A DNA stretch of 63,963 nucleotides, counting the filler, from Thelocarpon superellum (Eukaryota), in the NCBI GenBank assembly GCA_026025795.1. It is 9 parts of 9 records of this genome, joined end to end, with 100 filler letters (N's around TTAATTAATTAA, not from the genome) between each part and the next. Parts side by side here need not be neighbours in the genome. Positions count along the whole stretch, not along the records: positions 30,503 to 37,932 come from JAPEUG010000634.1; 8 more parts are not named here. One strand, written 5' to 3'. The notes under the pieces were generated by a model. That model was not told where the DNA came from and did not search any database. It saw only the letters and a program-made list of their open reading frames with translations. Below are positions 7,594 to 60,863 of the stretch, in pieces. Within the stretch, counting starts at the first letter, position 1; every line of letters begins with the position of its first letter. Position numbers and translations under genes: made by a program.

Positions 7594-7693
7594 NNNNNNN
7601 NNNNNNNNNNNNNNNNNNNNNNNNNNNNNNNNNNNNNTTAATTAATTAANNNNNNNNNNNNNNNNNNNNNNNNNNNNNNNNNNNNNNNNNNNN
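7594..7693. other. Artificial contig linker N44-TTAATTAATTAA-N44 (also at 15244-15343, 22872-22971, 30403-30502, 37933-38032, 45411-45510, 52864-52963, 60298-60397)
   Basis: Identical 100-nt spacer with stops in all six frames. Genes are cut at several of these edges and do not continue on the other side. Confidence 0.98.
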
Positions 7694-15243: not shown

Positions 15244-15343
15244 NNNNNNNNNNNNNNNNNNNNNNNNNNNNNNNNNNNNNNNNNNNNTTAATTAATTAAN
15301 NNNNNNNNNNNNNNNNNNNNNNNNNNNNNNNNNNNNNNNNNNN

Positions 15344-22854: not shown

Positions 22855-23137
22855 CGTGAGATTGCTCGGAGNNNNNNNNNNNNNNNNNNNNNNNNNNNNN
22901 NNNNNNNNNNNNNNNTTAATTAATTAANNNNNNNNNNNNNNNNNNNNNNNNNNNNNNNNNNNNNNNNNNNNCCGATCCAGGCCACCATCCAGCATCCCCC
23001 AACTCCTCGTACATTTCTCACCCGCTGCGCCGCTCGCCCTCCGTGAACTCGTGACTCATGACCGTCACTTTCTCATTTCGATTCCCGTTTCGTGGCTCTT
23101 TCTCTCTCTCCGCATCCGCCGTCTGGGTGAACGTCAT

Positions 23138-29312: not shown

Positions 29313-30825
29313 CTTGCTCACAGGATGCCGTTTGTTTGGAAAGTTGGGGCATGGAATTGATGGTGGTGGAGAGGTGAAGGCCGAGGTGTCGGGAAACTCC
29401 GGCAGGTGGTGGGGCAGTGGAGTCAAATTGGACGCTGCACGGTGCGGCAGGACAGCCGCGAGAGGTGAGGCTGCAGTGGTGTACGGGTGGGCTTGACGAC
29501 GCTGCTCTAGCCGTCTGGTCCACGCACCAGAAGGATGCATCATGGTACTCTCGCCGTCCATGACTGTTGGTGAGAGAGCGGAGTCGATCGTCGCTGGCGA
29601 CGCTTTTACATCCAAGTCCCACGTGGAGCCCTTTTCAATGGCGATTGACAAACGGCCCAGAGCTGTTGCCGGCTACTTCAAGACAGCAGCGACGAGGTGG
29701 TGTGCACGCAGGACAGAGCAAAGCTTAGTCGGTGTGACGTCGGGTTGTTTAACGTTCTGCGACAAGTTCATATTCGACGGGCGACTGAGTCGGCGACTAC
29801 GAAGTGGAGGGGGAACCGGGCGAGAGGGGAGTGGGGGGGGCAAAAAGACGACGAGCGCCAGAGGCTGGCCCGGAGGAGCAGCGAGAGGGTGAGGGTGAGA
29901 GTGAGAGCAGCAATTCGGGTCCATGCAGCGCCCTGCTCAGCACTCGGAATCCCGCTTGATTGCTAACGTCTGAGCTGGGGTCGGGGTGGTGGAGGATCAT
30001 GGAGATGGGTGCCGAGGCGGACGCATTGCTCGGCCTCACCGTCGATACTACTCGCTGGGTCTAGTGCTTCCAGTGGACCAGCTCGAGTCCGATCACTCGG
30101 CTGGGCGCTGGGCGCTGGGCGCTGGGCGCGAGGGTGGGCGGGCGTCGAAAGGCGTCGCTCGGTCTTGACGAACGCTGGGCACGATGGTGGGCAGGGGTTT
30201 TCTGCGGGGGTCAAGCCCGCTGCGTGTGGTGCATCCGGCAGGGCGAGCACATCGGGGGGACCAAGACGCATGCCGGCAGGTCCGCCAGTCGGCCGGCCAG
30301 CAGTCAACATGCCGATCAGCTTGAGCAAACAACTCTGCATACCGGCAGACCAGCCGCCACCGGCAGGCTCGACGCGAGTGGTAACAGCACCGAGATCGAC
30401 AGNNNNNNNNNNNNNNNNNNNNNNNNNNNNNNNNNNNNNNNNNNNNTTAATTAATTAANNNNNNNNNNNNNNNNNNNNNNNNNNNNNNNNNNNNNNNNNN
30501 NNATGGTGTGCAGTAGCTTCGCCCGCATGGACCCGGCGACGTCGATGAAGCTCATTCGCCACTCGCACGTCTACCGCTGGGGCCGGTAGGCCCGCACCGC
30601 CCCATCGGCTGCGGGGAAGCCGACCACGTAGTGGCACGTCCACCCATGGCCTCTGCACCTCTTGTCCTTTCCACCCTTCTGCCATTGACCACGACCGTGG
30701 ACCACGACGAGGACTACGACCAACCTGGCACGGCCTGCATCCACATGGCACTAGACACGTCCGACGGCTTGCATGGATCGTGACAACACACCTGTAAGGT
30801 CTGTTTCTTCTGCATTGCCGGCGCC

Positions 30826-30914
30826 GTGCATCCATGGACGGTGCATCCATGGACGGTGCATCCATGGGCGGTGCATCCATGGGCGGTGCATCCATGGACG
30901 TTGCATCCCTGGCG
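30826..30914. repeat. 15-bp minisatellite (GTGCATCCATGGRCG) x5 plus one degenerate copy
   Basis: Seen directly. No spacers between units. Confidence 0.9.
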
Positions 30915-31316
30915 TACTTTTCGAGCGCATGGCGGCACGGGCGGGATAGGGTTACAATCTTGAATGGATCGGCGCGTCATCTCACATCGCCCCATGCCGT
31001 CTCTTGTTCGAAGACGAGTCATGATGTGTCCCTCGCCCCGGTCGATGCCTCTCCTGCCGACGAGTACTGCGGCTAGTCCGGGGGAGGGTCTTCGAGTCTC
31101 ATTTCTTTCATGTACTCTTAACGTCGAATCAAGGCAATGGTCTGTTGGGCTGACTGGTCTCGTATTCCATTCCGTTCCTTGCCGTTGCCCGTCCCCGCCC
31201 CGCATCCCTTTTCGTCCAGACCTTTCCCTCTCCTCTCGTCCAACCATTTTCTCTCTCGTCCCGCCTCCTGCTCCTCGTCCCCGCCGCGCTGGTCTCTTCC
31301 CTTCCCGTGGCTCCAC

Positions 31317-31781
31317 CTACTCCTCCAGAATGTCCTTCAAGGCGCCGTGGCAAACGCAATAAAAGACGATGCGAGCGAAGAGATACAGACACGGAATCAG
31401 CAGCACGATGGCCGCGGACGTGAGCATGATGACGATGACGATGATGACGACCACCTTGCGTGCCCCACCGATCTCCTCCACCGGTCCGAGGGCCATCTCC
31501 TGCGCGAGAGACATGGTGGTCGTGGCATCGCTGTCCATGCTATAGCTTGCGGTGGCGTTGTCGGGCGTGGATCGATGGAGATGACGCACGGCGTTGACCC
31601 TCCCGGCCGTGGCCGCGTCGGCGCGGATGAGGTGCACGCTGGTCAATTGAGAGCTGGTGTGGACCGTGTCATGTGTCGCCAGGTCGATCGCAGTCTCGGT
31701 CGGATGGGCGAGGACGACGGGGACCAGACCGCTCATGCTGACCAGGGTGAGAAGGAAGGCGACGGTCGAGGTCAATTGCAT
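31317..31781 (-). CDS. Orphan single-pass membrane protein, 154 aa (signal peptide, Ser/Thr/His-rich ectodomain, TM helix, Cys-containing tail)
   Basis: MQLTSTVAFLLTLVSMSGLVPVVLA|HP signal, VVVIIVIVIMLTSAAIVLLIPCLYLFA TM segment and FYCVCHG tail. Confidence 0.6.
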   Translation of the reverse strand: MQLTSTVAFLLTLVSMSGLVPVVLAHPTETAIDLATHDTVHTSSQLTSVHLIRADAATAGRVNAVRHLHRSTPDNATASYSMDSDATTTMSLAQEMALGPVEEIGGARKVVVIIVIVIMLTSAAIVLLIPCLYLFARIVFYCVCHGALKDILEE

Positions 31782-32363
31782 CGTGACCGTGTTTCGACTG
31801 ATCTCGCAGCGAGGGAGGGAGGGATGTGAGGGAATGCAAGTTGCAAGATGTTTCAGGCCAGCAGGTGATGCGAGAATCACACTGGATGCGGAATATGTGG
31901 CGCCGTGGAAGATGTGGGAGATGAAGCAGGCCGCATGAGAGAAAGCAACTCCCGCGAGGTGCTATCGACTGACGACAACGCGTCTGGCAAGCCCAGTTTG
32001 CAGGCGCCGTGCCCGCTCATCGTCACTGAAATTAGCGTCGCCGTCACTGAGAAATGTACTGACGATGGGCACTTTTCGTGAATGCAAACAATTTACGACA
32101 CGAAGAAGACCACAGCAGGGAGTGCTCCCTCGAGGCATGAAGAGACGGGGACATCACGACAGCACAACTACCCGAGGCCCCTCTTGACCAAGTAGATGGT
32201 ACAGGGCACTCCCCGTGATCTGGGCATAAGTGGTGTTAGTAGCATGGGGTGCCTCCACAGCACCGTCAGTGTCTACGGCGTAAAGACGAGCCGGAGGCGT
32301 TCGATCACGTTCAATCGCTCTTCACCAGGCCATCGATCTTGATACTCGTCAACACGACGCCGA

Positions 32364-32415
32364 TCGTCCACTGTGTTCGTCCACTGTGTTCGTCCACTGT
32401 GTTCGTCCACTGTGT
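32364..32415. repeat. Perfect 13-bp tandem repeat (TCGTCCACTGTGT) x4
   Basis: Seen directly in the sequence. Confidence 0.9.
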
Positions 32416-32779
32416 GGCGACCTCGACGCATCCAAAGTCATTGGCTTCGGCGCCATGCTACTATATTCCTCGCAGTAACGTTCCCACGCTGTGGCAGTAG
32501 TGGAGGGGAGGTGGATGTACGCCGACTTGCCACCGGTAATACTGAGTTGGTGACCTCGTAGGTCCATCTCGCCTATTCTCCGGTTGTGGAATGGCCCGAG
32601 TCGCCGGCCGAGAGTCGCTCGCTACTGGCGAGTTTGGTTGGAGAAAGAACATGCCGGTACTGACGAAGCTTCCATTGATCATTGATCCATTGATCCACTG
32701 ATCAAATCATTCAAGCTCCAACGGGGCCAACCAGCCCTCGTCCTGGATAGCGACTACCTCCCGGCACTGGTTCCCGGCC

Positions 32780-33793
32780 ATGCCTCCTCCCGTCACACCG
32801 CGCCCAGGCCTCCTGCGCGCCCCGCGAGCGCCACTGGTCCGCCGTGCAAGATGCTCCGCCCAGGCTCGTCCATTTACCCAGTGCCATGCGCGCCGCGCCG
32901 CCGAGATCGCCCCGTCCGGCACTCGGGAGATGCGCAACATCCGGAATCCCGAGCAGGTGGCCAAGGATCAAGGCCAATTCCCCGATGAGATTGGCCTGCT
33001 TCCGTGTGCGTGGCCTCCCACCCCATCACCGTGAGCATCACCATTGACCACCATACGCCTGCTAGACACCTTTGTCATGCCCGCGCGCGTCAACCGGCCT
33101 CCGCTCTTCGCCGCTTGGCGCGATCGATGGACCTTGGTGTGGGCCCAGCAAAAGTACCGGGTCATGGGGCTCATCAGCCTCATGCTCTATCGCACCAAGC
33201 CGAAGCGGCGGGTGAAGCTACAGCGTCGACAGATCCCACCGACCGCAGAGGCGCTCCACTTGCGCATGTACAACGCCGTGGCGACGTACGTGGCGCATGC
33301 ATTGGGTCGAACGACCGCTAATGGATCGCAGGGCCGACTCCAATACCCTCCGCCTCGTGTGCGGCCCGAGCCTGGTGAACCGTCTGCAGGCACGGATCCA
33401 CGCGCGCGGCCGCGCCAAGGTGCGGTGGACCCTGCACCGATACACCGCGCCCATCAAGATCATGTCCCATAGCGCCCTGGCCTTTCCCACCGGCGCCGCC
33501 GGCATCCGGCAGGCCGTCGTTCGCGTCCAATCGCAACAGAGCCTGGCCCACGTCGCGCGCGATGGCAGCGTCGTCCCGGGCACGGGCCACCCCAAGGAGA
33601 TCCGCGAGTACCTGGTCCTCCAGCGCGTGTTGCGGGACGGCAAGGAGGGGCCCTGGAAGGTGTGGGGTACGATAGAGGAGACGAATCGTATGTGATGGCG
33701 GGAGATCGGTCCACATCCCTGCTCGCTGCTAACGTTATCCTGGCAGTGGACCGGTTGAGGGACATGGAAAAGCTGGCCGAGGCTTTTACGTGA
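32780..33793 (+). CDS. MBA1: Mitochondrial Tim44-like domain protein, Mba1/mL45 type (4 exons)
   Basis: Arg-rich mitochondrial presequence, EIGLLP|DTFVMP, RQAVVRVQSQQSL and REYLVLQR..WKVWGTIEET. Confidence 0.7.
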
Positions 33794-34804
33794 GCGCAGT
33801 TAGCGTCGGGCGGAGGTCGTCATCATTCTCATTGCTTCGTTGGCGGAATGTCATCTCGCGTTGGGAGTCATGTCATGACTGCATCAGCGCATTTCTCCAA
33901 CGGCGACCATCGATCTATGAAGGTTGATGAGACGGCACCTTTGCCCATCGTGTTGCATCTACCAATGTACGAGAACATGACTCTTGGGTCTCGCAAGGAC
34001 ATCAGATCACGACAAGCAAGGTTGACAGGTTGTCCATTTGTCCATTTACGTCACGGCATGCGCGTCCAGGTCTGGAGCTGGGAATGCATGGGCACGGGCA
34101 CGGGCATGGGCACGGTGCGAGGTCGGAGGCGGCAGCAAGACATCGCGAATCGCCAAAGCCCCCCACGTCCGCCATGCACGGCACTTAGTGTGCCCACCGC
34201 CGACCAATGGACCGGCGCCTTTGTAGACCCTGGTCAGTCTTGCGACGTCCGACGATAATTGTAGCGCATCACGTGATGTCCATCGATTCTGTCACGGGCC
34301 AATCATGACGTGGGGGCCCCCAGCTAGCTCATGCCGGACGCCAGGTCGGTGGGAGAGTTTGGCACAGTGTCATTAGTCGCCCTAAGCTCCAGGTAAGCTT
34401 CCCCAACAAGCCGCCTGAAGCCCGCCGAGCCTCCGCGCGTCGCCCACCTAACTAACCTCTCCGAGCTCGTCAGGTCAAGAGTTCGGTCCGTCGGGAAGGA
34501 AGAGACATGGGCCACGGGCGCAAGTCATCCCATCCATGTGCACGCCATCTTTCTACCTGCCTTCGTCATGACTACTTCTCTTCCCGCCTCGTGCATCGTA
34601 CATTAGCCTAGTCGCTGGCATTGTGTCACACGCCGAGATCGCTGATGGGCCGAAGCTACGAGTGCACATATAGGCTGCGTGGTCCATCAGTCGTCTACTA
34701 ACCCGTCCATCGGATCTGCCGTCATCCCACCACTTTGCCACGGTCGCATTCACCCCTCAGTGACCGGCAGTGTCATCCACTTTCGATCCTTTGACCCCAC
34801 GACA

Positions 34805-37243
34805 ATGGGCGCGCCCTCGTCCCAGGCATCCAATGCCATCATCTACCTGACCTATGGAGCATTCCTGTTCGTGGCCGTCCGCGTCGCGGCTGCTTCTGCC
34901 TCCCTCTCACGCACGCCGTGCTGATGGTCTGACCAGGGTCACCGGCCTGTACATCGCCTGGCGTCTCCGACACCAGAGCAAGGCGCAGTTCCTCTCGAGC
35001 AATGGCACGCAAAAGGGTCAGATCATCAGGCGCATGCCGTGCCCCCCGCAGCCACTCGCACGATGGTCCCATACTAACCTCCCCCAGCGTTGCCCCTCGC
35101 CCTAAACTTCATCGCGTCGGGTGAGTGGCCATGCATGCCCCAAGGGGCACGGTGGAAAGCGGCAGCGATGGCCATGCCGAGCTCGTGACAAGCCACCGAG
35201 CCACCGAGCAAGCATGATGGAGCATGCATCATGTCCTCATCTCCAGATCTAGGTTCGTTTCTGTAGCATTCAACGCTGGACCGTGGTCGGGGCGGCGTGC
35301 ATACCGTCGTCGTCCTGCACCGGCTCCGGCTCGTCCCGGCCACGGTTGAGCGCGGCTTCACTACGGGCGCTGATCCCGGACGGAGGCGGGACATCCACCT
35401 CTCTGCCATGCAGGAGAGATGTCTCCGTCCGTCTGGGGGATGCTGAGATTGCACCGTAAATACTCGATCAAGTTAATGCTTGCGTGGGGAACGTGCTGCC
35501 GCTTTCGACTCCCCCTGCCCCTCCCCCTCCCCCTGGCGACGAGCATGCTGACCGCAGATGAAGCGCTGGGATCCGGCATTCTGTTCACCTACCCGGAGAT
35601 ATCCACCATCGCCGGCGTCCAAGGCTTGGTCGTCTACTGTGTCGCGTCGGCCTTGCCCCTGATGGTCTTTGGCTACCTGGGACCCATCATTCGACGCAAG
35701 ACGCCCGAGGGCTTCGTCTTGACCGAGTGGACCCGGCAGCGATATGGACTGGTCGCCGCCTGGTTTCTGAGCGCCTTGACGTGGGTCGACTGGTCACGGA
35801 GGTCATCCGGAGACTGACGGTGACACAGCTTGATCACCATCTTCCTGTACATGGTGGCCGAGCTGTCCGCCTTGCAGCAGATCATCAATGCCCTGACCGG
35901 GCTCAACGGGCTTCCCGTGGTCATTGTCGAATGCGCCGTCACCACCATCTATACCTGTGGGTGCTCTAGTACCAGCGACCGTGAACTACGCTGACATGCC
36001 CCCACGTACGACAGCCATGGGCGGATTCCGCGTCTCTTTCGTGACCGATAACATCCAGGGAGCTATGGTGGTCGGCTTGATCATCCTCGGCGTCATCTCC
36101 GTGGGCGCCACGACCCACATTGACCGCAGCTTGATTGACTCGTCGGGACTGCTCAATGCGAGTCTGCTCGGGTGGCAGTTGATCTACATCCTGCCCGTCG
36201 CGGTCCTCACCAACGACTTTTTCATCTCGGTATGCACCGCACCACACTGCACCACCTGTCCCAAAGCTCGGCGACTAACCCTCCCAGGGCTTCTGGATGC
36301 GCACGTTCGCGTCCAAGACCGACAGAGACCTCGTCATCGGCGTATCCATTGCCACCGTCGTCGTCCTGTGCATCCTCACGTTGGTCGGATCCGCCGGGTT
36401 ACTGGCGGCATGGACGGGCACGTGGCCTGGCAACCCGGCGCAACCGGGCGACATCTCGCTATTCCTGCTGCTCGAGAACCTACCGAACTGGGTGGTTGGC
36501 GTGGTGCTCGTCATGGTCGTGTCCCTCAGCACGGCCGCGTTCGACAGCTTCCAGTCGTCTATGGTCTCGACCTTTTCCAACGACTTCTTCCGCAACCGGC
36601 TGCCGATCCTGTGGGTGCGCGCGGCGGTCGTCATCATCATCGTGCCCGTGGTCGTCGTGGCGCTCAAGGGCCCCGACATTCTCCAGATCTTCCTCATCTC
36701 CGACCTGGTCTCAGCGGCCGTGGTGCCCGTGCTCCTCGTGGGCCTGAGCGACCGCTGCTACTGGTGGCGCGGCTTTGAGGTCGTCGTCGGCAGCCTCGGC
36801 GGCATGTTGACCGTCTTCATTTTTGGCGCCATCTACTACAACGACGCGCAGCAGGGCGCGTATTTGCTCCTGCTCGAGAATGGGCTGTACGGCAACGACT
36901 GGAGTGCATTTGGTGTGTTTCTCCCCTGCGCCTCTCTGCATGCCATGCATTCATCTAACAATGGAAACCAGGCGCATTCGTCGCAGCGCCAATAGGCGGT
37001 CTCATATGGGGGTTTGGCGCCCTCGCACTCCGCCTCACGATCCAGTGCGTGTTGGCGCGTGTACACAACCGCCGCTTCGACGCGCTGGATCGCCCGATGC
37101 CGCTCGGTGCCTCCTCTCCCTCCTACGTCGCTTCGTCGGTTGGTGAGAGGGGTATCGAGGACGCAGAGTTGAGCGATGAAGAGCGTCGGAAGCATCTGGA
37201 GACGGGCGGGGTGAAGGCCACAGGGGAGGGAAAGTTTTTCTGA
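34805..37243 (+). CDS. Sodium:solute symporter family transporter (often labelled urea transporter; NCU01977-like putative thiamine or thiamine-precursor transporter), multi-exon
   Basis: LNFIAS|ALGSGILFTYPEI, PEGFVLTEW..RYG, LYMVAELSAL, GGFRVSFVTDNIQG, FWMRTFASKTD and STAAFDSFQS. Many TM helices and one unusually long intron (35121-35563). Confidence 0.9.
35352..35502 (+). ncRNA. TPP (thiamine pyrophosphate) riboswitch aptamer inside intron 35121-35563
   Basis: P1 GCGGC..CAC/GTG..GCCGC, P2 ACGG(35363)/CCGT(35454), extended P3 GGACGGAG/CTCCGTCC and GACATC/GATGTC, conserved GCTGAGA (35442-35448), GATC, P5 CAAG-TTAATG-CTTG and GCGTGGGGA. Confidence 0.93.
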
Positions 37244-37503
37244 TTGACGACGGACGGGAGGATTCGAATCGTTTCGTACCTGAGGAGGAGGAGGAGGAGG
37301 AGGAGGAGGTGGTGGTGGAGGAGTAGCCAGTGTGCATGACATCTTTCATTTCTTGACGGCCCAGTCTACACATGAAGTATGACCGAAATTGTATATGAGA
37401 TTATGAACGAGACTAAACAAAAACGAGACCGAGATCGAGAGTGATAACAACAAAGATCATGGTCGATTGCGTATCCGCCTTCCTCTTCCCCTTACTCCCT
37501 TAC

Positions 37504-37540
37504 ACCCTTGACCCTTGACCCTTGACCCTTCGCCCTTCAC
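37504..37540. repeat. Heptamer repeat (ACCCTTG)n
   Basis: Seen directly in the sequence. Confidence 0.7.
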
Positions 37541-38555
37541 CTGTACTTAACAACCTAGGAGATCACATCTGCATCGAATGTCCATGACGGTGTAATCTAA
37601 TTGTTTTGATTAAGCTAAAGCCAGCAAATAGTCTAGTAATCTATCTCTCTAGCTTTCTCTGACAATGCAAATAAGAGAGGAGTGAGCGTAGTGTAAATCA
37701 CTGGAGCTCTTCCATCCCGTCCTGTCATCCTCGCTCTTCCTCCCGCTTGTGATTCATCCCCCATGGCTCGAGGAGACGGGTGGAAGAGACCGTGAGACGA
37801 CAGAGAGGGTTGGACGGGAAAGGCAAGGAGAGAGCGAATGCAGAAAGGGGAAAGAAAACGCGAAATGGTACATGACCTTTTTTTGGTGATCGGAATCGAT
37901 ACAGATTTCGTGGTTGCACAAGGAGACGGACGNNNNNNNNNNNNNNNNNNNNNNNNNNNNNNNNNNNNNNNNNNNNTTAATTAATTAANNNNNNNNNNNN
38001 NNNNNNNNNNNNNNNNNNNNNNNNNNNNNNNNCTGTCCCGCCCGTTCCGTTCCAGCCTCAGCGCCGGCGCAAAGGACTTTCATTTCCCTCTTCCATCCCT
38101 CCCTCCATCCACTCATCACCATACCCCCCCTTCCCTTCATGTGCGTCCTGCTCATTATCATAAAAGTCCGCAATCGTAAAATGAAGAGATTGAATGAGAA
38201 ATTCAGCGCCCGCCCAGTCATCCACCAACCCAGCGGTCGAATGGCCCACAGCACGCATCATTGGATTCGTGTGTCGACCCGCTCGAGTAAGGACATGAAG
38301 TGATCTGTTGGCATGGACTTGGTTCACGGGAGGGTAAAGTGGGGCCGAGAATTCGTGTTGACGAGTTGTGCGGTGGAGCTACACCGAGGACTCGTGCGGT
38401 GAGCTATTGCTGATATGAATCGTCACCGCGGAGTCGCGCCGAGTGTCGTGTGGTTGATCCATGCCAAGGAGGGGTGCGGTTGGAATTTGCGGGGACCATC
38501 GTCTTAACGTGTTTTTCGCTTGAGAGTGATTGCGACAATCATCGTGGAAGAGGCC

Positions 38556-45291: not shown

Positions 45292-48200
45292 GATCACTTC
45301 CACCGCGAGATCGAAGCCATGCCCCCTCGCCGTGACTGCCACTCTATCTGCTCCAGATGTCGTCATTGACGCGTCGCTTCCTGACTATGCGCTCGCCAAG
45401 ATTCCATGTGNNNNNNNNNNNNNNNNNNNNNNNNNNNNNNNNNNNNNNNNNNNNTTAATTAATTAANNNNNNNNNNNNNNNNNNNNNNNNNNNNNNNNNN
45501 NNNNNNNNNNTGATCTCTGCTCTAGTTCTAATTGTGGTCCAAATGCACTGCAAGGCTTAGGGTCCGGAGGGAACTAGTTACCCCCTACTTAGCCCCTACC
45601 CGGATAGATCCGAATCGAGACCGTTTGTTGAAAGGAGTGGCGCCTCCGAGCGATACCGAATCATAACGACCTTGGCCCCGGACCGCCCGTTACCATACTT
45701 GTCCCATGCTTGGCATCTCCTTAGCAGTGAACCCACCCGTGCCCTCAAGGAACCAGATGATATGGCACGGGTTCAGTCCGAGTAATTGGAGGTACCGGCC
45801 AGGCACGCCTCGGGAGCAATCTGCACGAGATTCAAAGCCCCGCACTTCCGGCGATGAACGGTGAGATGTCTGTGAGAAATGTTGCGGGACATCGTGAGTC
45901 GACCAGTAAGATTGAACAGAACCTCCGACTCACAGGACCAGTCGACCTTCGTCTTGATCGAGGACGACTACGAAGTATCGTACGAGGACAAGTACGAGTC
46001 CCGCGCTCCTACCGGCAGGGATCCCGAGCGAAGCGAAGTCAAGCGAAGTGAAGTGAAACGACAGGGTGGTGACGAGGCGAAGCGGCGGCGAGAGACTGAG
46101 GCCAGTGGGCCGCCAAAAGATTCGGGGAAGTCAGAAATGTTCCGAACGTCGAGTCTAGGGCATGCAGACCCCGAGTGATGAGAGACCCGTCGTACGCTTC
46201 TGCATGCGCTCCTGTGAAAGGCACCGCAGCAGCACTCCCGACTGGACAACATCCCCAAAAACCTCCCTATCTGGCGCCGGACGTGTCCGCGCTCGCAGGG
46301 ATTCGTGGTGGGGGCTTTATTGGTGTGATGGTACTACGATTGGACGAGCATGGTCCATGGGAGTGGGTGCGAGTGCGAGCACGAGTACCATGCTCCCAAT
46401 GTTGGAACCGACGTGACGGTGCCCACACGCCCGACCACCCATCAACGGCACCCTCGAGGTGATTGGCATGACGCGCCTGGCCGCGGCGGCGATCGCGGTC
46501 GAGGGACGACAGGTCCTTCCTAGTGTACGAGGTCGTACTCGTACCATACCGCTCGTGCTCATGCTCGTGCTCGTGCAGGAACACGTCTGGCCACCCCCAG
46601 ATACCGGCCCGGATGGGCGCGCTTGGGTTCATGGAGTGACGGGGAAGAGAGGGGAGCATTCGACGCCCACAGCGCGGCGCGACGCGGTAGCGAGTGACAT
46701 AGCACCTCCTGTTCTTGGCACGGCACTGTTCAAACGCGTGCCCCCAGCGGTAGATGGGTGTCGAAGAGCCTGCTCGGTTAGAGCGCGAAGCAACCACGAC
46801 GGGTCCGACGGTACTTGGCGAGGCACCGAAAGGACGAGTACCGCACGATAGTCACACACCACCGCCCGTGAAGGATCGGGCGGCGTCGATGGCGACGGAG
46901 GTCACACCTGTAGCAGAGGCGTGCGCGTCCAACACTGACCGTCCGAGGACGATACTCGTCCTCTCTCGTCCCCAGGTTCCTGGCCAGGTTCCTGGTACCC
47001 TCCTTCCGATCGCTCGTCCCAGCACGATGAGGTCCTCCGGCGACCCTGCGGAGACCCTGGGCGCCGGTGACGGGGATGCGCCTGCACAAAGCAACGGTAC
47101 CTGGGGTGCCAGCGCCGGCAAACCAGGGTCCTCGGAAACCCAGCTAGAGCCAACCAACCTCGACCAAGGGAACCGTTCTGGAGCGGAGAGCACCGGCCAG
47201 AGACATGCCAAAGGCCAAAGGCGCGCTAGCTGTAGGCGAGCTGCCGGGTCATTGGAGGGTTAGAGCCGGGCGTGCCCAAGGAGAGTCCGGTGGTCCCCCC
47301 TTCACGGTTCATCTCCCCCGCTTACCGAGACTAGCCTCCCAAAAGTCTATGAGCACATCCCTTGGGCGAGGATCGTCCAGAGCCCAACCCAGCCGTCCGA
47401 TCCCACCAGCAAGGGCTGGCACCGAACTTGGGAGCAAAGTTCGACGGGGCTGAAGCCTGGTCCATCGACCAGATGCGGCCCTTCCAATCGCCTCCCTTTT
47501 GTGCACCGCGTCAGCGGCCTCCCGACGTTGTCGTCATTGAGAGCTTGGAGTCGTCCACCCGGGGCCCCCCGTCGTACGACTTTAATGCTGTGATCTGTGC
47601 CTCATACAGGTCGTCCGATCCTTTGTGTCTCGCCCCCGCTGCTCGCGTGGACCCGCTCCCCATCCCCGGCCAACGAGGATTTTCCGCCGAGGCAAGCACC
47701 GCGTAGCTTTTCATGTGAGGAGGTCATGGCGTTCTATCCTCCTGTCGATGGCTGATGGTCCCCCCTCCAGCGTCCTCCTCCACCGGGCCCCCTCTCCATG
47801 TCTTGCTCGCGGCGCAAGTGCACAACCATGAACAGCTTCTGAGCCCCCACGGTCCCGTGAACGCGACGCGAGGTTCTGAGACGTGGTGGGTCACGAGCGT
47901 GGCTGAGGACGGGTGGATCGTGACGGGCACCCTCGAGGCATTGGAAGACACTGCCGTAACGCGGTGCTACACGACTGATAGATGAAACACGACCATTCCT
48001 GCACGGCTTCTGGAGCAACGCTTTCACGTCGGGCGAATTGACGGGTCGAGAGTGAGATCGAATACCTTTGTGAGGTAAGCTACCGCCGGCACTCGCCAAG
48101 CAATACCTCATGCAGCTGGACCTGGAGCCGATGTTGACCCGGCGCGGGGTGCAGTGACACAGTACGACTAACCTCCATCCCGTCGTTGCAAACGCACCCA

Positions 48201-52393: not shown

Positions 52394-54844
52394 CGCATCT
52401 TGTGTCATCCTTGGGACTCTGTATACAAGGCGTCTGGGGCGAGAAAAAGCAGACGAATCTATTAGTGGCGCAAGCCTGACCGCGTCATCGGTGCGAAACG
52501 TCATGAGTTTTGTGCCCATTCTCCAGTCGTACATGATTCCGTACGGTCCTGCTACAGAGGCAGAGGGAAGACTGCCGAACACGAGGTCGAGGTAAGGAGG
52601 AGGTAGAAGATATGCAGGGCCGGCGAGGGAGGGCTGGTATGAAGTCGAGTGAGGAGTTGGTGCTCCCTCTGCCCCGCTTCACGCGTGAGCCTTCTATCCT
52701 GCGTTAGACAAGCATACCTAAGTGGACGATCCAATGCCTGAGGGGGAGCGGTTGTCGTCCTTTCTGTCTCTCTCCTTCTACGCTTTACGCTCCTACCAGC
52801 CCGTGACTTGGGCGGTGCCCGACCGCGCATCCATTCTCTTCCGTCGGCTACGATAACTACTCGNNNNNNNNNNNNNNNNNNNNNNNNNNNNNNNNNNNNN
52901 NNNNNNNTTAATTAATTAANNNNNNNNNNNNNNNNNNNNNNNNNNNNNNNNNNNNNNNNNNNNTCGCACGAGGGTGGCAATGATGCCAATCTTTTTACAG
53001 GCACTTCCTTGACTGGCCGGCAGCTTTTCACTCTTGTAACCTAATGGTATCAGGGCCGCCTTAGATCAAACAACGTGTGGATAGCCCACGGGGATGCCTA
53101 AATCCCGTTGTTGGCAAAGTTGCTTCAAAGATCAAAGGAGGTGCAGCGTCCTCTTATTATAACCGGCGCTTGACACGGGCGCACGGGAGTACCTGCGTAC
53201 GCAAGCCTTACGCGACGAGCGCCAGTCTTACTTATATCGTAGCTTCAACTAGGCAGCAATACTCTACCGGACTCTTTACAATCATCATCATCATCATCAT
53301 CGCATGTACGTACTTCGTACATCGAGTATCAAAGGCAAGCCGCGATGGCGGCTTGATACCTGCCTGCCTTGAGCTCAGGGATGGTGACGTGTTTGTCGGA
53401 GGCTACGTTGAGGTGTGACTCGACAGGGACATGGACATACCATAACAGTGCCGTAGCCATGCCACACGAACATGGGATCGACGACGCACCTACCGTCCGG
53501 GCCCGGACCGAGCATCTCCACCCGGCCGGCACTTGCATGGGCCACGCCGTGCGGGTGGGTGCCGGCGTCTGCATCTGCATCTGCTGAGGCCGGTATTATT
53601 GCCGCCGCCGCTGGTGCTGGAACGCGTACAAGTATGTTAGTGCGTGCAGCTGGCGGAAAACGAGCTGGCGTGGTGTCGTGGGCTCGTCGCCATTGTGGTG
53701 GGATCTTGCGTCACCCTGCTGACGTCTTCTCGCCTCCTCTTCGCTGCCGCCGCTCTCCTCCGCCGCCCTCCTCCCACGGCGCCACTTTACAGAGTGATGG
53801 GAGGTCCGGACGAATGAGCGTTCCCGGCCTTCGTAGCATGATCTCCTACGCATACGGATCCAGGCACCCGTCGCCTATCTGGGACGATATCTCCAGCCTC
53901 GTCCAAGCCATGCAGGAGAATGACCACCGTATGGACCAAGCCATACAAAAGAAAAGGGTCGTTCCGACCCAGCCGTACCAGACAAGCTTTGGTCGTCGAC
54001 GACGACACAAGCCACCCGGACAAAGGTGGGGGGCCCGAGGGAGACCCCGAGCGAGGGTGGAGGGGCCGGCCCAGTGGTTCGCGCTGCGTGGCGTGATCCG
54101 GCTCGTCTCCAGCTGAAGGGAGCAGCCGAAGGACGGAGGGCCGACGGGTACCGGATGGCCCGCCGCACCCACGTCCAGGTCCACGGCCACATGGGGCGTA
54201 CGAAGAACGTATCGGACGAGGTACCGGAGCTCGTGGCTGATCCTGGCCGTCTTCCCATGGCACGCATTTGCGTCCGCGTGCGCGCACAGTCGGTCTCGAC
54301 CGCAGCTGTGGAGGAGTGCTCTGGGTGGGGCGCCTCTCATTGGCGGCGCGCAGGCGAGCGACTGGTCGAGTCAGTCAATTCGGTTGTCTCGGTTGACTCG
54401 GTCCCCTCGCGTCAATTGGCGACCGGGCTTGGCCAAGCGACGCAGCAGGGGTGGGGGACCGGGGGAGGGAAGGTGGTGGGGGGCTTAGTGGCGGCGGCGG
54501 TGGAGGTCGTCGTGTTACCACTGCCGCAGCAGGTGCAGGTGCTGCCCGGTGTTGCTGCGGCTTGCGCTGGCTGCGGCGGCGGCGGCGACGGTGGTGGTGA
54601 AGGGTAAGATGGAGGTATGTAAAGTTCTTGGGGCTGCCCTGGGTGCTGCCCTGGGTGCTGCTGGTGCCGCTGGCGTGCAGTGGCGGTGGATGCAGGCCAA
54701 CATGCGTGCTGGTCCAGCCCTCCAGCCCTCCGAAAGCACCCTCTCCCCCATCAACCCACCCTCGTGAGGCTTTCGCCGCGACGACGCTCGCGGCAGAGGT
54801 GACCCGTGCCGCCACCACGGTTGCCCTGCTACTGCGGGTTGCTC

Positions 54845-60297: not shown

Positions 60298-60863
60298 NNN
60301 NNNNNNNNNNNNNNNNNNNNNNNNNNNNNNNNNNNNNNNNNTTAATTAATTAANNNNNNNNNNNNNNNNNNNNNNNNNNNNNNNNNNNNNNNNNNNNGCC
60401 GACTTTTGTTTACTGCGGTGTCGTGGGGTACGATGTGGTGCGACTCGGGCGATGTTGTGGGGTGGGCGAGACCGCCAGTAGCGCAGATCTCTCAGTCTCA
60501 ATTCCTGGACGTACTGACACCAGATGAGACGTAATGTTAAGATGTAATGTTACTTCGTACACCTCCAACCAATCACCCTTACTGCCCTTGTATTTGGCAG
60601 CGCATCGATTCCCTCCTTTCGTACCACACCGCGGTCATGTATGCATTTTGCACAGCTACTTGACAGTGTCAATGACCCAGCTTCTGTACATTTTCCACCA
60701 CCCAGATGGTCCAAATTAAATCTACCACCGTTTGACCTCCCACCCAACCAAACTCGATTCATCCGGGAGGTCGAGTGGGCCAGGGCCACCGCTGAGAGAA
60801 AAAGATGTGACATGAAAGTAATAGCCTCCTCCACCTCGTCCCCGTCTTGGTCCTTGAGCGCCC

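Follow-up and report, generated by a model that had tools for sequence, protein, structure and literature searches.

The question raised by this locus is what a complete TPP aptamer is doing inside a coding-region intron of a transporter gene in Thelocarpon superellum, and whether it is able to decide how that intron is spliced. To our knowledge TPP riboswitches are the only riboswitch class known in eukaryotes. The sequence analysed, here called the window, is a stretch of 63,963 nt from this fungus, and the intron in question occupies positions 35121-35563. It is very probably the riboswitch intron of an orthologue of NCU01977/Candida DUR31, acting as a thiamine OFF switch on splicing, and it is a well-preserved new example of the known NCU01977/DUR31 class of switch, not a new mechanism. 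The long-range mechanism of that class was shown experimentally for NCU01977 of N. crassa (Li & Breaker, NAR 2013, PMC3597705).

The host gene and its third intron

The gene and the splice signals of the intron are as follows.

34805..37245, plus strand: host gene, a transporter of the SSF family (PF00474) and of the DUR31/NCU01977 type, with 8 exons and 7 introns, from an open-frame search
35088..35120, plus strand: exon 3, encoding ..ALPLALNFIAS, its last base being the first of the next codon
35121..35126, plus strand: distal donor S1, GTGAGT, the use of which gives the full reading frame
35548..35552, plus strand: candidate branch site CTGAC with its branch A at 35551, read from the sequence
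35556..35563, plus strand: a pair of in-frame acceptors in tandem, a CAG whose last base is 35557 and an AAG whose last base is 35563

The only database protein with 100% identity is P0001, a deposited PF00474 protein that matches the gene model using the acceptor at 35557; its source name is a lichen-associated ascomycete MAG, and the order Thelocarpales is the lineage given by that name. The relatives of P0001, which their sources label as urea transporter or as Na+/proline symporter, include proteins of Coccidioides posadasii and Microsporum canis, both of which are among the species with this riboswitch (PMC3597705). That the host gene is an orthologue of NCU01977/DUR31 is suggested by its family, by an intron position in common and by the presence of the riboswitch. 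Thiamine transport has been demonstrated for Candida Dur31 (PMC5997356), and thiamine would be the substrate of the transporter here.

The aptamer lies in the third intron, within the coding region of a DUR31/NCU01977-type SSF transporter gene. The earlier note had described this intron as unusually long, and at 443 nt it is so compared with the 48-71 nt of the other six introns of the same gene. Among 80 environmental loci the aptamer is found upstream of the same exon in 70, the other ten being eight contigs that end before it and two spliced RNAs, and the LNFIAS exon end is present in 62 loci as well as in the window. The length of 40 orthologous introns ranges from 364 to 652 nt. At the position of S1 the orthologues have GTGAGT, GTAAGT, GTTAGT or GTGGGT, and in most of them GCTGAC or GCTAAC is aligned at the candidate branch site.

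The choice of acceptor alters the protein by two residues, giving 545 aa with 35557 and 543 aa with 35563. As the two extra residues are missing in 14 of 16 aligned orthologous proteins, and an AG at the position homologous to 35563 ends all 40 of 40 orthologous introns, the acceptor at 35563 is favoured. This is the intron end that had been proposed, and it is better supported than the 35557 of the deposited gene model, in which, judging from these alignments, the wrong tandem acceptor was probably chosen.

The TPP aptamer

Within the intron the aptamer is laid out in the following parts.

35353..35508, plus strand: TPP aptamer, RF00059, 40.3 bits, model positions 1-105
35352-35362, plus strand: 5' strand of aptamer helix P1
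within the aptamer, plus strand: helix P2
about 35372-35440, plus strand: P3 insert of 69 nt
35443-35448, plus strand: CUGAGA
35463-35489, plus strand: P4-P5
35492-35502, plus strand: 3' strand of P1

The presence of a full TPP aptamer is borne out by a match to the whole of the RF00059 model at 35353-35508, with the two-arm architecture of P1-P2-P3 and P4-P5, and by its predicted fold. When the 168 nt from 35345 to 35512 are folded in isolation the minimum free energy structure is the canonical P1-P2-P3-P4-P5 with CUGAGA unpaired (z -4.62, equalled by 0 of 200 shuffles).

The ligand-contact motifs of a TPP aptamer are CUGAGA in the P2/P3 junction and GCG on the 3' side of P5. Both are conserved here, with CTGAGA at 35443-35448 and TTGCGTG within 35480-35486 invariant across the 40-intron alignment, and the RNA would be expected to bind TPP.

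A search with RF00059 had been put forward as a check of the aptamer, and its outcome is divided: the match is full length at 40.3 bits, with an E-value of 2.2e-6 in a 701-nt scan and 2e-4 in a scan of the whole window, yet it falls below the Rfam gathering score of 54.3, which is the curators' cut-off and not a structural feature. A default Rfam scan therefore reports nothing, while RF00059 is the only match in the whole window at E<=0.01 when 4227 families are scanned. The RF00059 alignment places the source of the shortfall in the 69-nt P3 insert and the absence of a P3a helix. As the 14 RF00059 matches obtained from 15 orthologous loci also score below 54.3, at 33-49 bits, the low score looks like a trait of this riboswitch lineage, with its long P3 insert and no P3a, and not like decay.

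The score does bear on the possibility that the aptamer is a decaying relic, with S1 spliced constitutively and the complementarity described below having no regulatory role in this fungus, and it is known that some yeast DUR31 genes have lost the riboswitch (Donovan et al., PLoS Genet 2018, PMC5997356). This is very improbable given how much has been retained. The 40.3 bits sit within the orthologue range, the 40-intron alignment has 74 invariant columns, which lie mainly in the aptamer core and in alpha' and are all present in the Thelocarpon intron, the aptamer, the spacer hairpin and the intron as a whole all fold far better than shuffles, and the duplex of alpha with alpha' is the strongest of the 42 variants compared.

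The helices of the aptamer are themselves held in the orthologues, with 79% of cells paired across the 40 aligned introns compared with 30-43% when the partners are slid, and with pairing of 97-100% for P2 and 87% for P4-P5. Covariation across orthologous introns had also been suggested as a check, and in the aptamer helices it gives no support because they are almost invariant, the observed score over the 40 introns being reached by 500 of 500 shuffles.

Predicted long-range pairing between alpha and alpha'

Two elements placed near opposite ends of the intron are complementary to each other.

35143..35167, plus strand: alpha element, with the core AGCGGCAGC at 35158-35166 and a perfect 12-nt stretch at 35155-35166
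35494..35522, plus strand: alpha' element, with a perfect 12-nt stretch at 35495-35506; it can pair with alpha, or else serve as the P1 3' strand opposite 35352-35362

The 12-bp anti-aptamer pairing that had been claimed is exact, with GAAAGCGGCAGC (35155-35166) the reverse complement of GCTGCCGCTTTC (35495-35506); the first begins 34 nt after the GT at 35121, and the second overlaps the 3' strand of P1, which uses 35492-35502. A G-U pair extends the 12 Watson-Crick pairs to 13 contiguous pairs over a separation of 328 nt, and the whole helix has 23 pairs with small bulges. Its duplex energy is -42.6 kcal/mol, compared with -21.9 for P1 formed with the same strand, and when a 483-nt segment of the pre-mRNA is folded the helix appears in both the minimum free energy structure and the centroid (z -3.79, with 0 of 100 shuffles folding as well).

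Li & Breaker describe alpha by the consensus RGCGGYRRY and ask for at least 11 continuous pairs with alpha' (PMC3597705). The core AGCGGCAGC fits this consensus and starts 37 nt downstream of the intron's first base, less than 60 nt from S1, and alpha', with its overlap of P1 and its 13 continuous pairs, lies about 60 nt from the acceptor at 35563 (57 nt from the end of the 12-mer, 61 nt from the end of the core). In 40 introns the median distance between S1 and the alpha core is 39.5 nt, compared with 38 nt here, and alpha' is separated from the 3' splice site by 53-76 nt, compared with 61 nt here.

In an intron from a window of 59% G+C, with ten other short inverted repeats in the region, a match of 12 nt might be chance and have nothing to do with the aptamer. 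That is extremely improbable. A perfect complement of at least 12 nt linking the 231 nt that precede the aptamer to the 25 nt around the P1 3' strand arises in only 2 of 5000 dinucleotide-preserving shuffles, and in 1 of 5000 when only the first 60 nt of the intron are considered; alpha matches the published consensus (PMC3597705), and the same pairing is found in the same place among the orthologues, with both cores in 59 of the 62 loci that have the exon 3 end.

It is also apparent that the flanks of the helix have co-varied. Among 42 distinct combinations of alpha and alpha' the cognate flanks pair better than non-cognate ones, with 0 of 2000 permutations reaching the observed number of pairs or energy, and 83% of the cells of the helix core are paired compared with 26-59% when it is slid. 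Here the proposed covariation holds in part: the flanks compensate, and the covariation score is modest, being reached by 6 of 500 and 14 of 500 shuffles, in an alignment (MAFFT) that is 3 nt out of register for one lineage and with a relatedness among the loci that inflates such tests.

Beyond the conserved part, the 10 pairs of 35143-35153 with 35508-35522 are an extension specific to the Thelocarpon intron, only 30-53% of the equivalent cells being paired in orthologues. A separate helix of 16 pairs (-21.4 kcal/mol) between the end of exon 3 with S1 (35107-35122) and the branch and acceptor region (35543-35563) was considered as a conserved element and rejected; cognate combinations average -11.8 and non-cognate ones -12.6, and 1990 of 2000 permutations do as well.

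The internal donor and the proposed direction of the switch

The remaining elements of the splice choice lie between alpha and the aptamer.

35251..35258, plus strand: internal (proximal) donor AG/GTTCGT, its GT at 35253 and the cut between 35252 and 35253
35186..35188, plus strand: TGA, the first in-frame stop in transcripts that keep this part of the intron

Both the internal donor and the TGA met on reading from exon 3 into the intron are where they had been reported, and the sequence thus has an alternative donor whose use leaves a premature stop. The hexamer GTTCGT is found, as had been said, at 398 and 26193 of the window, and it is also the donor hexamer of intron 1 of the host gene (34867). 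Of 40 distinct introns of the orthologues, 38 have the internal donor AGGUUCGU without any change, as they do the 8-mer AGGTTCGT, and an in-frame stop precedes the donor in 38 of 38.

The proposed mechanism is as follows. At low TPP, alpha' (35494-35506 and beyond) would pair with alpha (35155-35167) and the long-range helix would loop out about 330 nt, the internal donor included. This would bring S1 (35121) near the 3' splice site (35563), whereupon the whole intron would be removed and the transporter made. At high TPP the aptamer would fold, and with P1 closed and alpha' withdrawn from alpha the advantage of S1 would be lost, leaving the transcript to be spliced from the internal donor AG/GUUCGU (35253) or to stay unspliced. 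Either product would run into the TGA at 35186 and encode a stump of 79 residues, and nonsense-mediated decay would probably act on such a transcript as well. The direction, in which low TPP leads through the helix to S1 and a functional mRNA, is the one that had been suggested for this intron and is that published for N. crassa (PMC3597705). Both the thiamine-dependent splice choice and the decay of the aberrant isoforms would be expected to operate in Thelocarpon superellum.

RNA-derived contigs of relatives contain the aberrant products. In two of them (L079, L005) the internal donor is joined to the common 3' splice site, while two others, L001 and L003, keep the riboswitch intron and have lost the remaining introns present in their genomic counterparts L042 and L072, to which identity is at least 99.6% for L001 and 96-100% by segment for L003. 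No fully spliced S1 isoform was found among the 80 loci kept. Four sequencing runs compared with the Thelocarpon locus consist of DNA-type contigs and contain no joint at 35120/35558 or at 35120/35564.

The internal donor is more constant than S1 and is the most conserved element outside the aptamer, which invites a different account, namely that the switch works mainly as in NMT1 and THI4, 'Type I/III' in the scheme of Mukherjee et al. (Sci Rep 2018, PMC5882874). The unbound aptamer would then mask AG/GUUCGU and TPP would unmask it, with the pairing of alpha and alpha' secondary. We consider this unlikely, even though structure prediction lends it something. In the ensemble with alpha paired the donor is often predicted to pair with RCGGGC or GCGGAU in the 5' half of the aptamer. 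The median unpaired probability of the internal donor rises from 0.17 with alpha paired to 0.35 with P1 formed; 25 of 34 loci show such an increase, and the Thelocarpon intron passes from 0.42 to 0.87. This rise is also in line with the main reading, against which it counts that the predicted accessibility of S1 does not change consistently, the state with alpha paired having the higher value in 14 of 34 loci. There is also an 8-nt complement to P5 in the Thelocarpon intron (35208-35215 with 35476-35483), for which 2 of 200 shuffles are as good, and Li & Breaker allow a minor route of this kind for the regulation that remains without alpha (PMC3597705).

Such masking lacks a consistent partner, however. 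A fixed pairing partner for GUUCGU was looked for across loci and none was found, the predicted partner being a part of the aptamer further downstream than the P1-P2 5' strand in 16 loci, upstream in 8, in P1-P2 in 6 and in the hairpin in 5, with the donor unpaired in 3. Masking by P4-P5 was likewise rejected, as the 8-nt complement is not conserved: one of at least 7 nt is present in only 6 of 39 introns, and the mean longest match is 5.15 compared with 4.66 in shuffles. In N. crassa mutations near the proximal site had an effect on expression of only about 2-fold, whereas deletion of alpha nearly abolished it (PMC3597705), and among the orthologues alpha and alpha' are conserved with compensating flanks.

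The spacer hairpin

The interval between the internal donor and the aptamer is occupied by a further structure.

35274..35352, plus strand: long spacer hairpin between the internal donor and P1, with arms 35274-35294 and 35332-35352

In the Thelocarpon intron none of 200 shuffles folds as well as this hairpin (z -3.73), and in 38 of 38 orthologues the equivalent segment folds as a single long hairpin, z being below -2 for 35 of them. It is possible, if on balance doubtful, that the expression platform has parts beyond the published helix of alpha and alpha', in the form of a three-part module shared across distant fungi through which TPP does more than weaken S1. The module would consist of the near-invariant, sub-consensus donor AG/GUUCGU, a spacer of about 10-15 nt and the long hairpin, free in sequence and fixed in placement, its base abutting P1. 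It may hold the decoy donor at the foot of the aptamer, and a closed P1 could stack on the hairpin and so actively present the decoy to the spliceosome. The 10-pair extension of alpha and alpha' and the 16-pair helix between the exon 3 end and the branch and acceptor region would, on the same reading, be reinforcements specific to the Thelocarpon lineage.

The donor motif is not mentioned in what was available of the main texts of Li & Breaker 2013 (PMC3597705) and Mukherjee 2018 (PMC5882874), and the supplementary alignment of the former may show both donor and hairpin. Nor did a literature search on hairpins and alternative splice sites in connection with NCU01977 return anything.

Comparison with known switches

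Set against NCU01977, the anatomy fits point for point. The two share the host gene family, the placement of the aptamer in an internal coding-region intron, an alpha within 60 nt of S1 and an alpha' that forms the 3' shoulder of P1, some 60 nt away from the acceptor. They also have in common a run of 11 or more continuous pairs, internal donors that lead to premature stops, OFF-switch logic and a long, dispensable P3 stem (PMC3597705). This correspondence, along with the internal donor use and intron retention in RNA contigs of relatives, agrees with the splicing switch that the earlier note had read here, and its interpretation is supported because the intron belongs to the class described by Li & Breaker in 2013.

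The differences are largely of dimension. The intron is 443 nt compared with about 680 nt in N. crassa and 550-650 nt typically, alpha and alpha' are 328 nt apart compared with about 530, the riboswitch is in intron 3 and not intron 2, and a single conserved internal donor is seen in place of the three (S2-S4) of N. crassa (PMC3597705). With 23 pairs and -42.6 kcal/mol, the helix predicted for the Thelocarpon intron is longer than that of N. crassa.

In the scheme of Mukherjee et al. (PMC5882874) the intron resembles 'Type II', in which a gene of the urea-transporter family has an internal intron and the P1 3' strand pairs with alpha between S1 and S2. Type II introns are 650-900 nt and Type III introns 200-400 nt (PMC5882874), so that this 443-nt intron and its orthologues of 364-652 nt combine Type II elements with shorter introns. 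Candida parapsilosis DUR31 is likewise an orthologous transporter gene with two donors, a riboswitch and one acceptor, in which thiamine moves splicing to the second donor or to retention; it differs in the position of its intron, close to the 5' end, and in its second donor, GTTGGA, and an interaction of alpha with alpha' is not mentioned in the part of the paper available (PMC5997356). N. crassa NMT1 and THI4 share the aptamer class and the control by TPP of a choice between two 5' splice sites, but there the introns are in the 5'-UTR, P4-P5 masks the proximal donor and uORFs are involved, whereas a conserved complement to P4-P5 was not found here.

Implications for thiamine uptake

The intron is a complete and very well-preserved TPP riboswitch in Thelocarpales, an order for which no riboswitch report was found; among titles and abstract openings on TPP riboswitches and lichens none was on lichen fungi. 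The lineage to which it belongs is missed by the Rfam gathering score, as is seen both in the window and in all 14 orthologous matches from 15 loci. Part of the regulation of NCU01977 was left unexplained by its authors (PMC3597705), and this mechanism gains testable additions from the comparison, namely an internal donor that is invariant, a hairpin that is conserved and isoforms that occur naturally in environmental RNA contigs. For the fungus itself, it is likely that thiamine uptake is feedback-controlled at the level of splicing.

The host gene and the ends of the riboswitch intron

The riboswitch intron falls in the piece 30503-37932 (7430 nt) of the window, within a transporter gene modelled as follows.

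34805 to 37243-37245, + strand, transporter gene of 8 exons, ATG to stop
34867-34936, + strand, intron 1
35017-35087, + strand, intron 2
35121-35557 or 35121-35563, + strand, intron 3 (riboswitch)
35781-35828, + strand, intron 4
35957-36014, + strand, intron 5
36230-36287, + strand, intron 6
36913-36971, + strand, intron 7

With acceptor 35557 the product is identical at every residue to the database protein P0001 (545 aa, Pfam PF00474, sodium:solute symporter family), labelled at source as a hypothetical protein of metagenome-assembled Thelocarpon superellum, a member of the Pezizomycotina, order Thelocarpales. Relatives sharing 70-82% identity across the largest exon carry the source names urea transporter or Na+/proline symporter. 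The remaining six introns are short (48-71 nt). The donor of intron 1 (34867-34872) is GTTCGT, as is the conserved internal donor of the riboswitch intron, so this hexamer serves as a constitutive donor in T. superellum.

Tandem acceptors lie 6 nt apart at 35556-35563 (CAG/ATGAAG/), each in frame, with P0001 following the upstream one at 35557 and so gaining an additional Asp-Glu. As these two residues are missing from 14 of 16 aligned orthologous proteins, an AG homologous to 35563 ends all 40 delimitable orthologous introns, and the AG at 35557 is just 6 nt past the likely branch A at 35551, the intron end at 35563 proposed in the earlier note is preferred. The acceptor in P0001 is likely an annotation slip, or else marks a minor NAGNAG-type isoform.

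Just past the transporter stop, in the presumed 3' UTR, a run of GAG and GTG triplets at 37271-37325 reads (GAG)9(GTG)3, then GAGGAG, with TAG at the end. The pieces of the window, ~7.5 kb each, look like separate contigs arranged from longer to shorter, and every joint consists of two 44-N runs flanking 12 bases (7594-7693, 15244-15343, 22872-22971, 30403-30502, 37933-38032, 45411-45510, 52864-52963, 60298-60397).

The putative TPP aptamer

The full TPP aptamer claimed from sequence is matched end to end by the Rfam TPP model (RF00059) at 35353-35508, the sole Rfam match at E<=0.01 (E 2.2e-6 in a local scan, 2e-4 window-wide), but its 40.3 bits are below the gathering score of 54.3, so that a default Rfam scan is empty and the match is seen only in E-value mode. 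The low score looks like a lineage trait, with matches in 14 of 15 orthologous loci scanned (drawn from 70 carrying the element) at 33-49 bits, every one below the gathering score. The alignment to the model accounts for it: P3 carries a 69-nt insert, and P3a, a small helix expected by the bacterial-weighted model, is missing. On its own, 35345-35512 is predicted to adopt the canonical TPP fold with two arms, made up of P1, P2, a long P3, unpaired CUGAGA and P4-P5 (z -4.62, equalled by 0/200 shuffles).

The orthologous loci come from metagenome contigs scanned with an alignment of 16 orthologues, 80 loci being kept of 187. The aptamer 3' half is found in 70 of the 80, on the gene strand and upstream of the exon starting ALGSGILF; the 10 without it comprise eight contigs cut off short of the aptamer and two spliced RNAs (L005, L079). 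In an alignment of 40 introns, 79% of the aptamer-helix cells are paired, a share that falls to 30-43% once the partners are slid. These helices are nearly constant and thus carry no covariation signal, the observed score being reached by 500/500 shuffles, and their pairing is conservation rather than independent structural proof.

In the sequencing runs X1, X2, X3 and X7, contig depth across 35396-35569 is up to ~1000-fold higher over the aptamer 3' half. Contigs of these runs match 35350-35373 and 35442-35505 and differ in place of P3, which suggests that other TPP riboswitches, paralogous or from other fungi, share the aptamer core in the same communities.

Predicted long-range pairing of alpha and alpha'

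The main text of Li & Breaker 2013 (PMC3597705) dissects the N. crassa NCU01977 intron, where splicing without thiamine starts from donor S1 and preserves the frame, and where with thiamine the products contain stops, through retention or through the internal donors S2-S4. There a GC-rich alpha (consensus RGCGGYRRY, usually <60 nt from S1) pairs with alpha', the P1 3' shoulder, usually <60 nt from the acceptor, a pairing confirmed in NCU01977 by disruptive and compensatory mutations.

The two 12-mers first noticed in the window, alpha (35155-35166) and alpha' (35495-35506), are indeed exact reverse complements; the pairing reaches 13 contiguous pairs including one G-U and, with small bulges, extends over 35143-35167 against 35494-35522. 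Of 5000 dinucleotide-preserving shuffles, 2 gave a complement of this length linking the upstream part of the intron to the P1 3' region, and 1 did so when only the first 60 intron nt were considered. The window intron resembles that of NCU01977 in its alpha core, AGCGGCAGC, an exact fit to the consensus, and in its alpha-S1 and alpha'-acceptor distances, which agree with the published ranges.

The LNFIAS end of exon 3 is present in 62 loci and the window, and in 59 of the 62 both cores are recognisable, with divergent alpha sequences in L024, L048 and L055. The window duplex is the strongest among 42 distinct alpha/alpha' combinations, in which the cores are invariant and the adjacent flanks vary by lineage yet match within a locus (GAAA/TTTC in the window, ATTAGA/TCTGAT, GATCAGA/TCCGATC, GGAAAAGA/TCTTTCC). 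Cognate partners outscored permuted ones in flank pairs and duplex energy in 2000/2000 permutations, a test inflated by kinship of the loci. A tool-based count on a MAFFT alignment, with one lineage 3 nt out of register, is weaker: 83% of core-helix cells are paired and 6/500 shuffles reach the covariation score.

The helix appears in both the MFE and centroid structures of the window's 483-nt segment (z -3.79), and for nearly every locus the ensemble predicted without constraints coincides with the state in which alpha is paired, which fits this pairing being the ligand-free default.

A further helix, between the stretch formed by the final 14 nt of exon 3 and the S1 GU (35107-35122) and the branch/acceptor region 35543-35563 (-21.4 kcal/mol, including CUUCAUC/GAUGAAG), closes the entire intron in the MFE. 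It fails as a conserved feature in 40 orthologues, 1990/2000 permutations equalling it, and is therefore lineage-specific or chance.

The internal donor and the spacer hairpin

The internal donor GTTCGT lies at 35253 as first proposed, and the in-frame TGA at 35186-35188 is the first stop of exon 3 read-through. This donor is not an arbitrary GT: its octamer AGGTTCGT recurs without a mismatch, and once only, in 38 of 40 distinct orthologous introns, 107-218 nt downstream of S1 and preceded by an in-frame stop in 38/38; L039 bears AGGTTTAT and L052 a nearby consensus GGTAAGT. Of the two donors S1 is the more variable across loci (GTGAGT, GTAAGT, GTTAGT, GTGGGT).

From just past the internal donor to P1 the segment folds as a single long hairpin in 38/38 loci (z < -2 in 35, median -4.3, mononucleotide shuffles); the hairpins are unrelated in sequence and length (61-173 nt). 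In the window it spans 35274-35352 (z -3.73, dinucleotide shuffles), its base adjoining the P1 5' strand. With P1 forced and alpha blocked, predicted accessibility of the internal donor rises in 25 of 34 loci, from a median of 0.17 with alpha paired to 0.35 (0.42 to 0.87 in the window); that of S1 is without trend in the same 34.

No common masking partner of the internal donor emerged, the predicted partner varying by locus. One candidate mask was an NMT1-like P5 complement: GCAAGCAT (35208-35215), 44 nt upstream of the donor, exactly complements the P5 loop and 3' strand (35476-35483), equalled by 2/200 shuffles, and a match of at least 7 nt occurs in just 6 of 39 orthologous introns.

RNA-derived contigs of relatives

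At 99.8-100% identity to genomic L042, contig L001 lacks four short introns and keeps the entire riboswitch intron, and L003 shows the same pattern against L072. In L079 and L005 every other intron is absent, and the sequence runs straight from an ...AG, at the site where relatives have AG/GTTCGT, into the start of the following exon; the loci include no genomic version of either, and this junction is placed by homology to L011 and L001. Retention of the riboswitch intron and use of the internal donor therefore both occur naturally in relatives. Among the 80 loci kept, none is a fully spliced contig.

In a single contig, L002 (193-227, against L065 2812-2891), splicing joins S1 to a cryptic AG that lies 45 nt further on, immediately ahead of alpha, and the rest of the intron is retained, an isoform type not described in the literature surveyed.

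Relation to known riboswitches

At 443 nt the window intron falls short of the lengths given by Li & Breaker (550-650 nt) and by Mukherjee et al. 2018 (PMC5882874) for their "Type II" introns (650-900 nt), which the latter place only in urea-transporter-family genes, but it is of ordinary length for the fungi of the compared loci (364-652 nt, median 467, 40 introns). Thiamine transport by Dur31, the orthologue in Candida, is shown by Donovan et al. 2018 (PMC5997356). Since the alpha consensus, distances and gene family match this literature, the splicing switch proposed in the earlier note is the published mechanism correctly applied.

A literature search (titles, abstract openings) found no TPP riboswitch reports in lichen fungi. 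A check of the main texts of PMC3597705 and PMC5882874 gave 0 occurrences of the internal-donor motif; the Li & Breaker supplement may already show the internal donor and hairpin.

Because the donor mask varies by locus and the P5 complement is not conserved, the Li & Breaker mechanism is adopted and, by analogy with NCU01977, should hold for the window intron: the long-range alpha-alpha' helix would loop out the decoy internal donor and so juxtapose S1 and the acceptor. To this the conserved donor-hairpin module is probably to be added as a candidate part of the expression platform, and the intron is a further example of an established riboswitch mechanism, not a new one.
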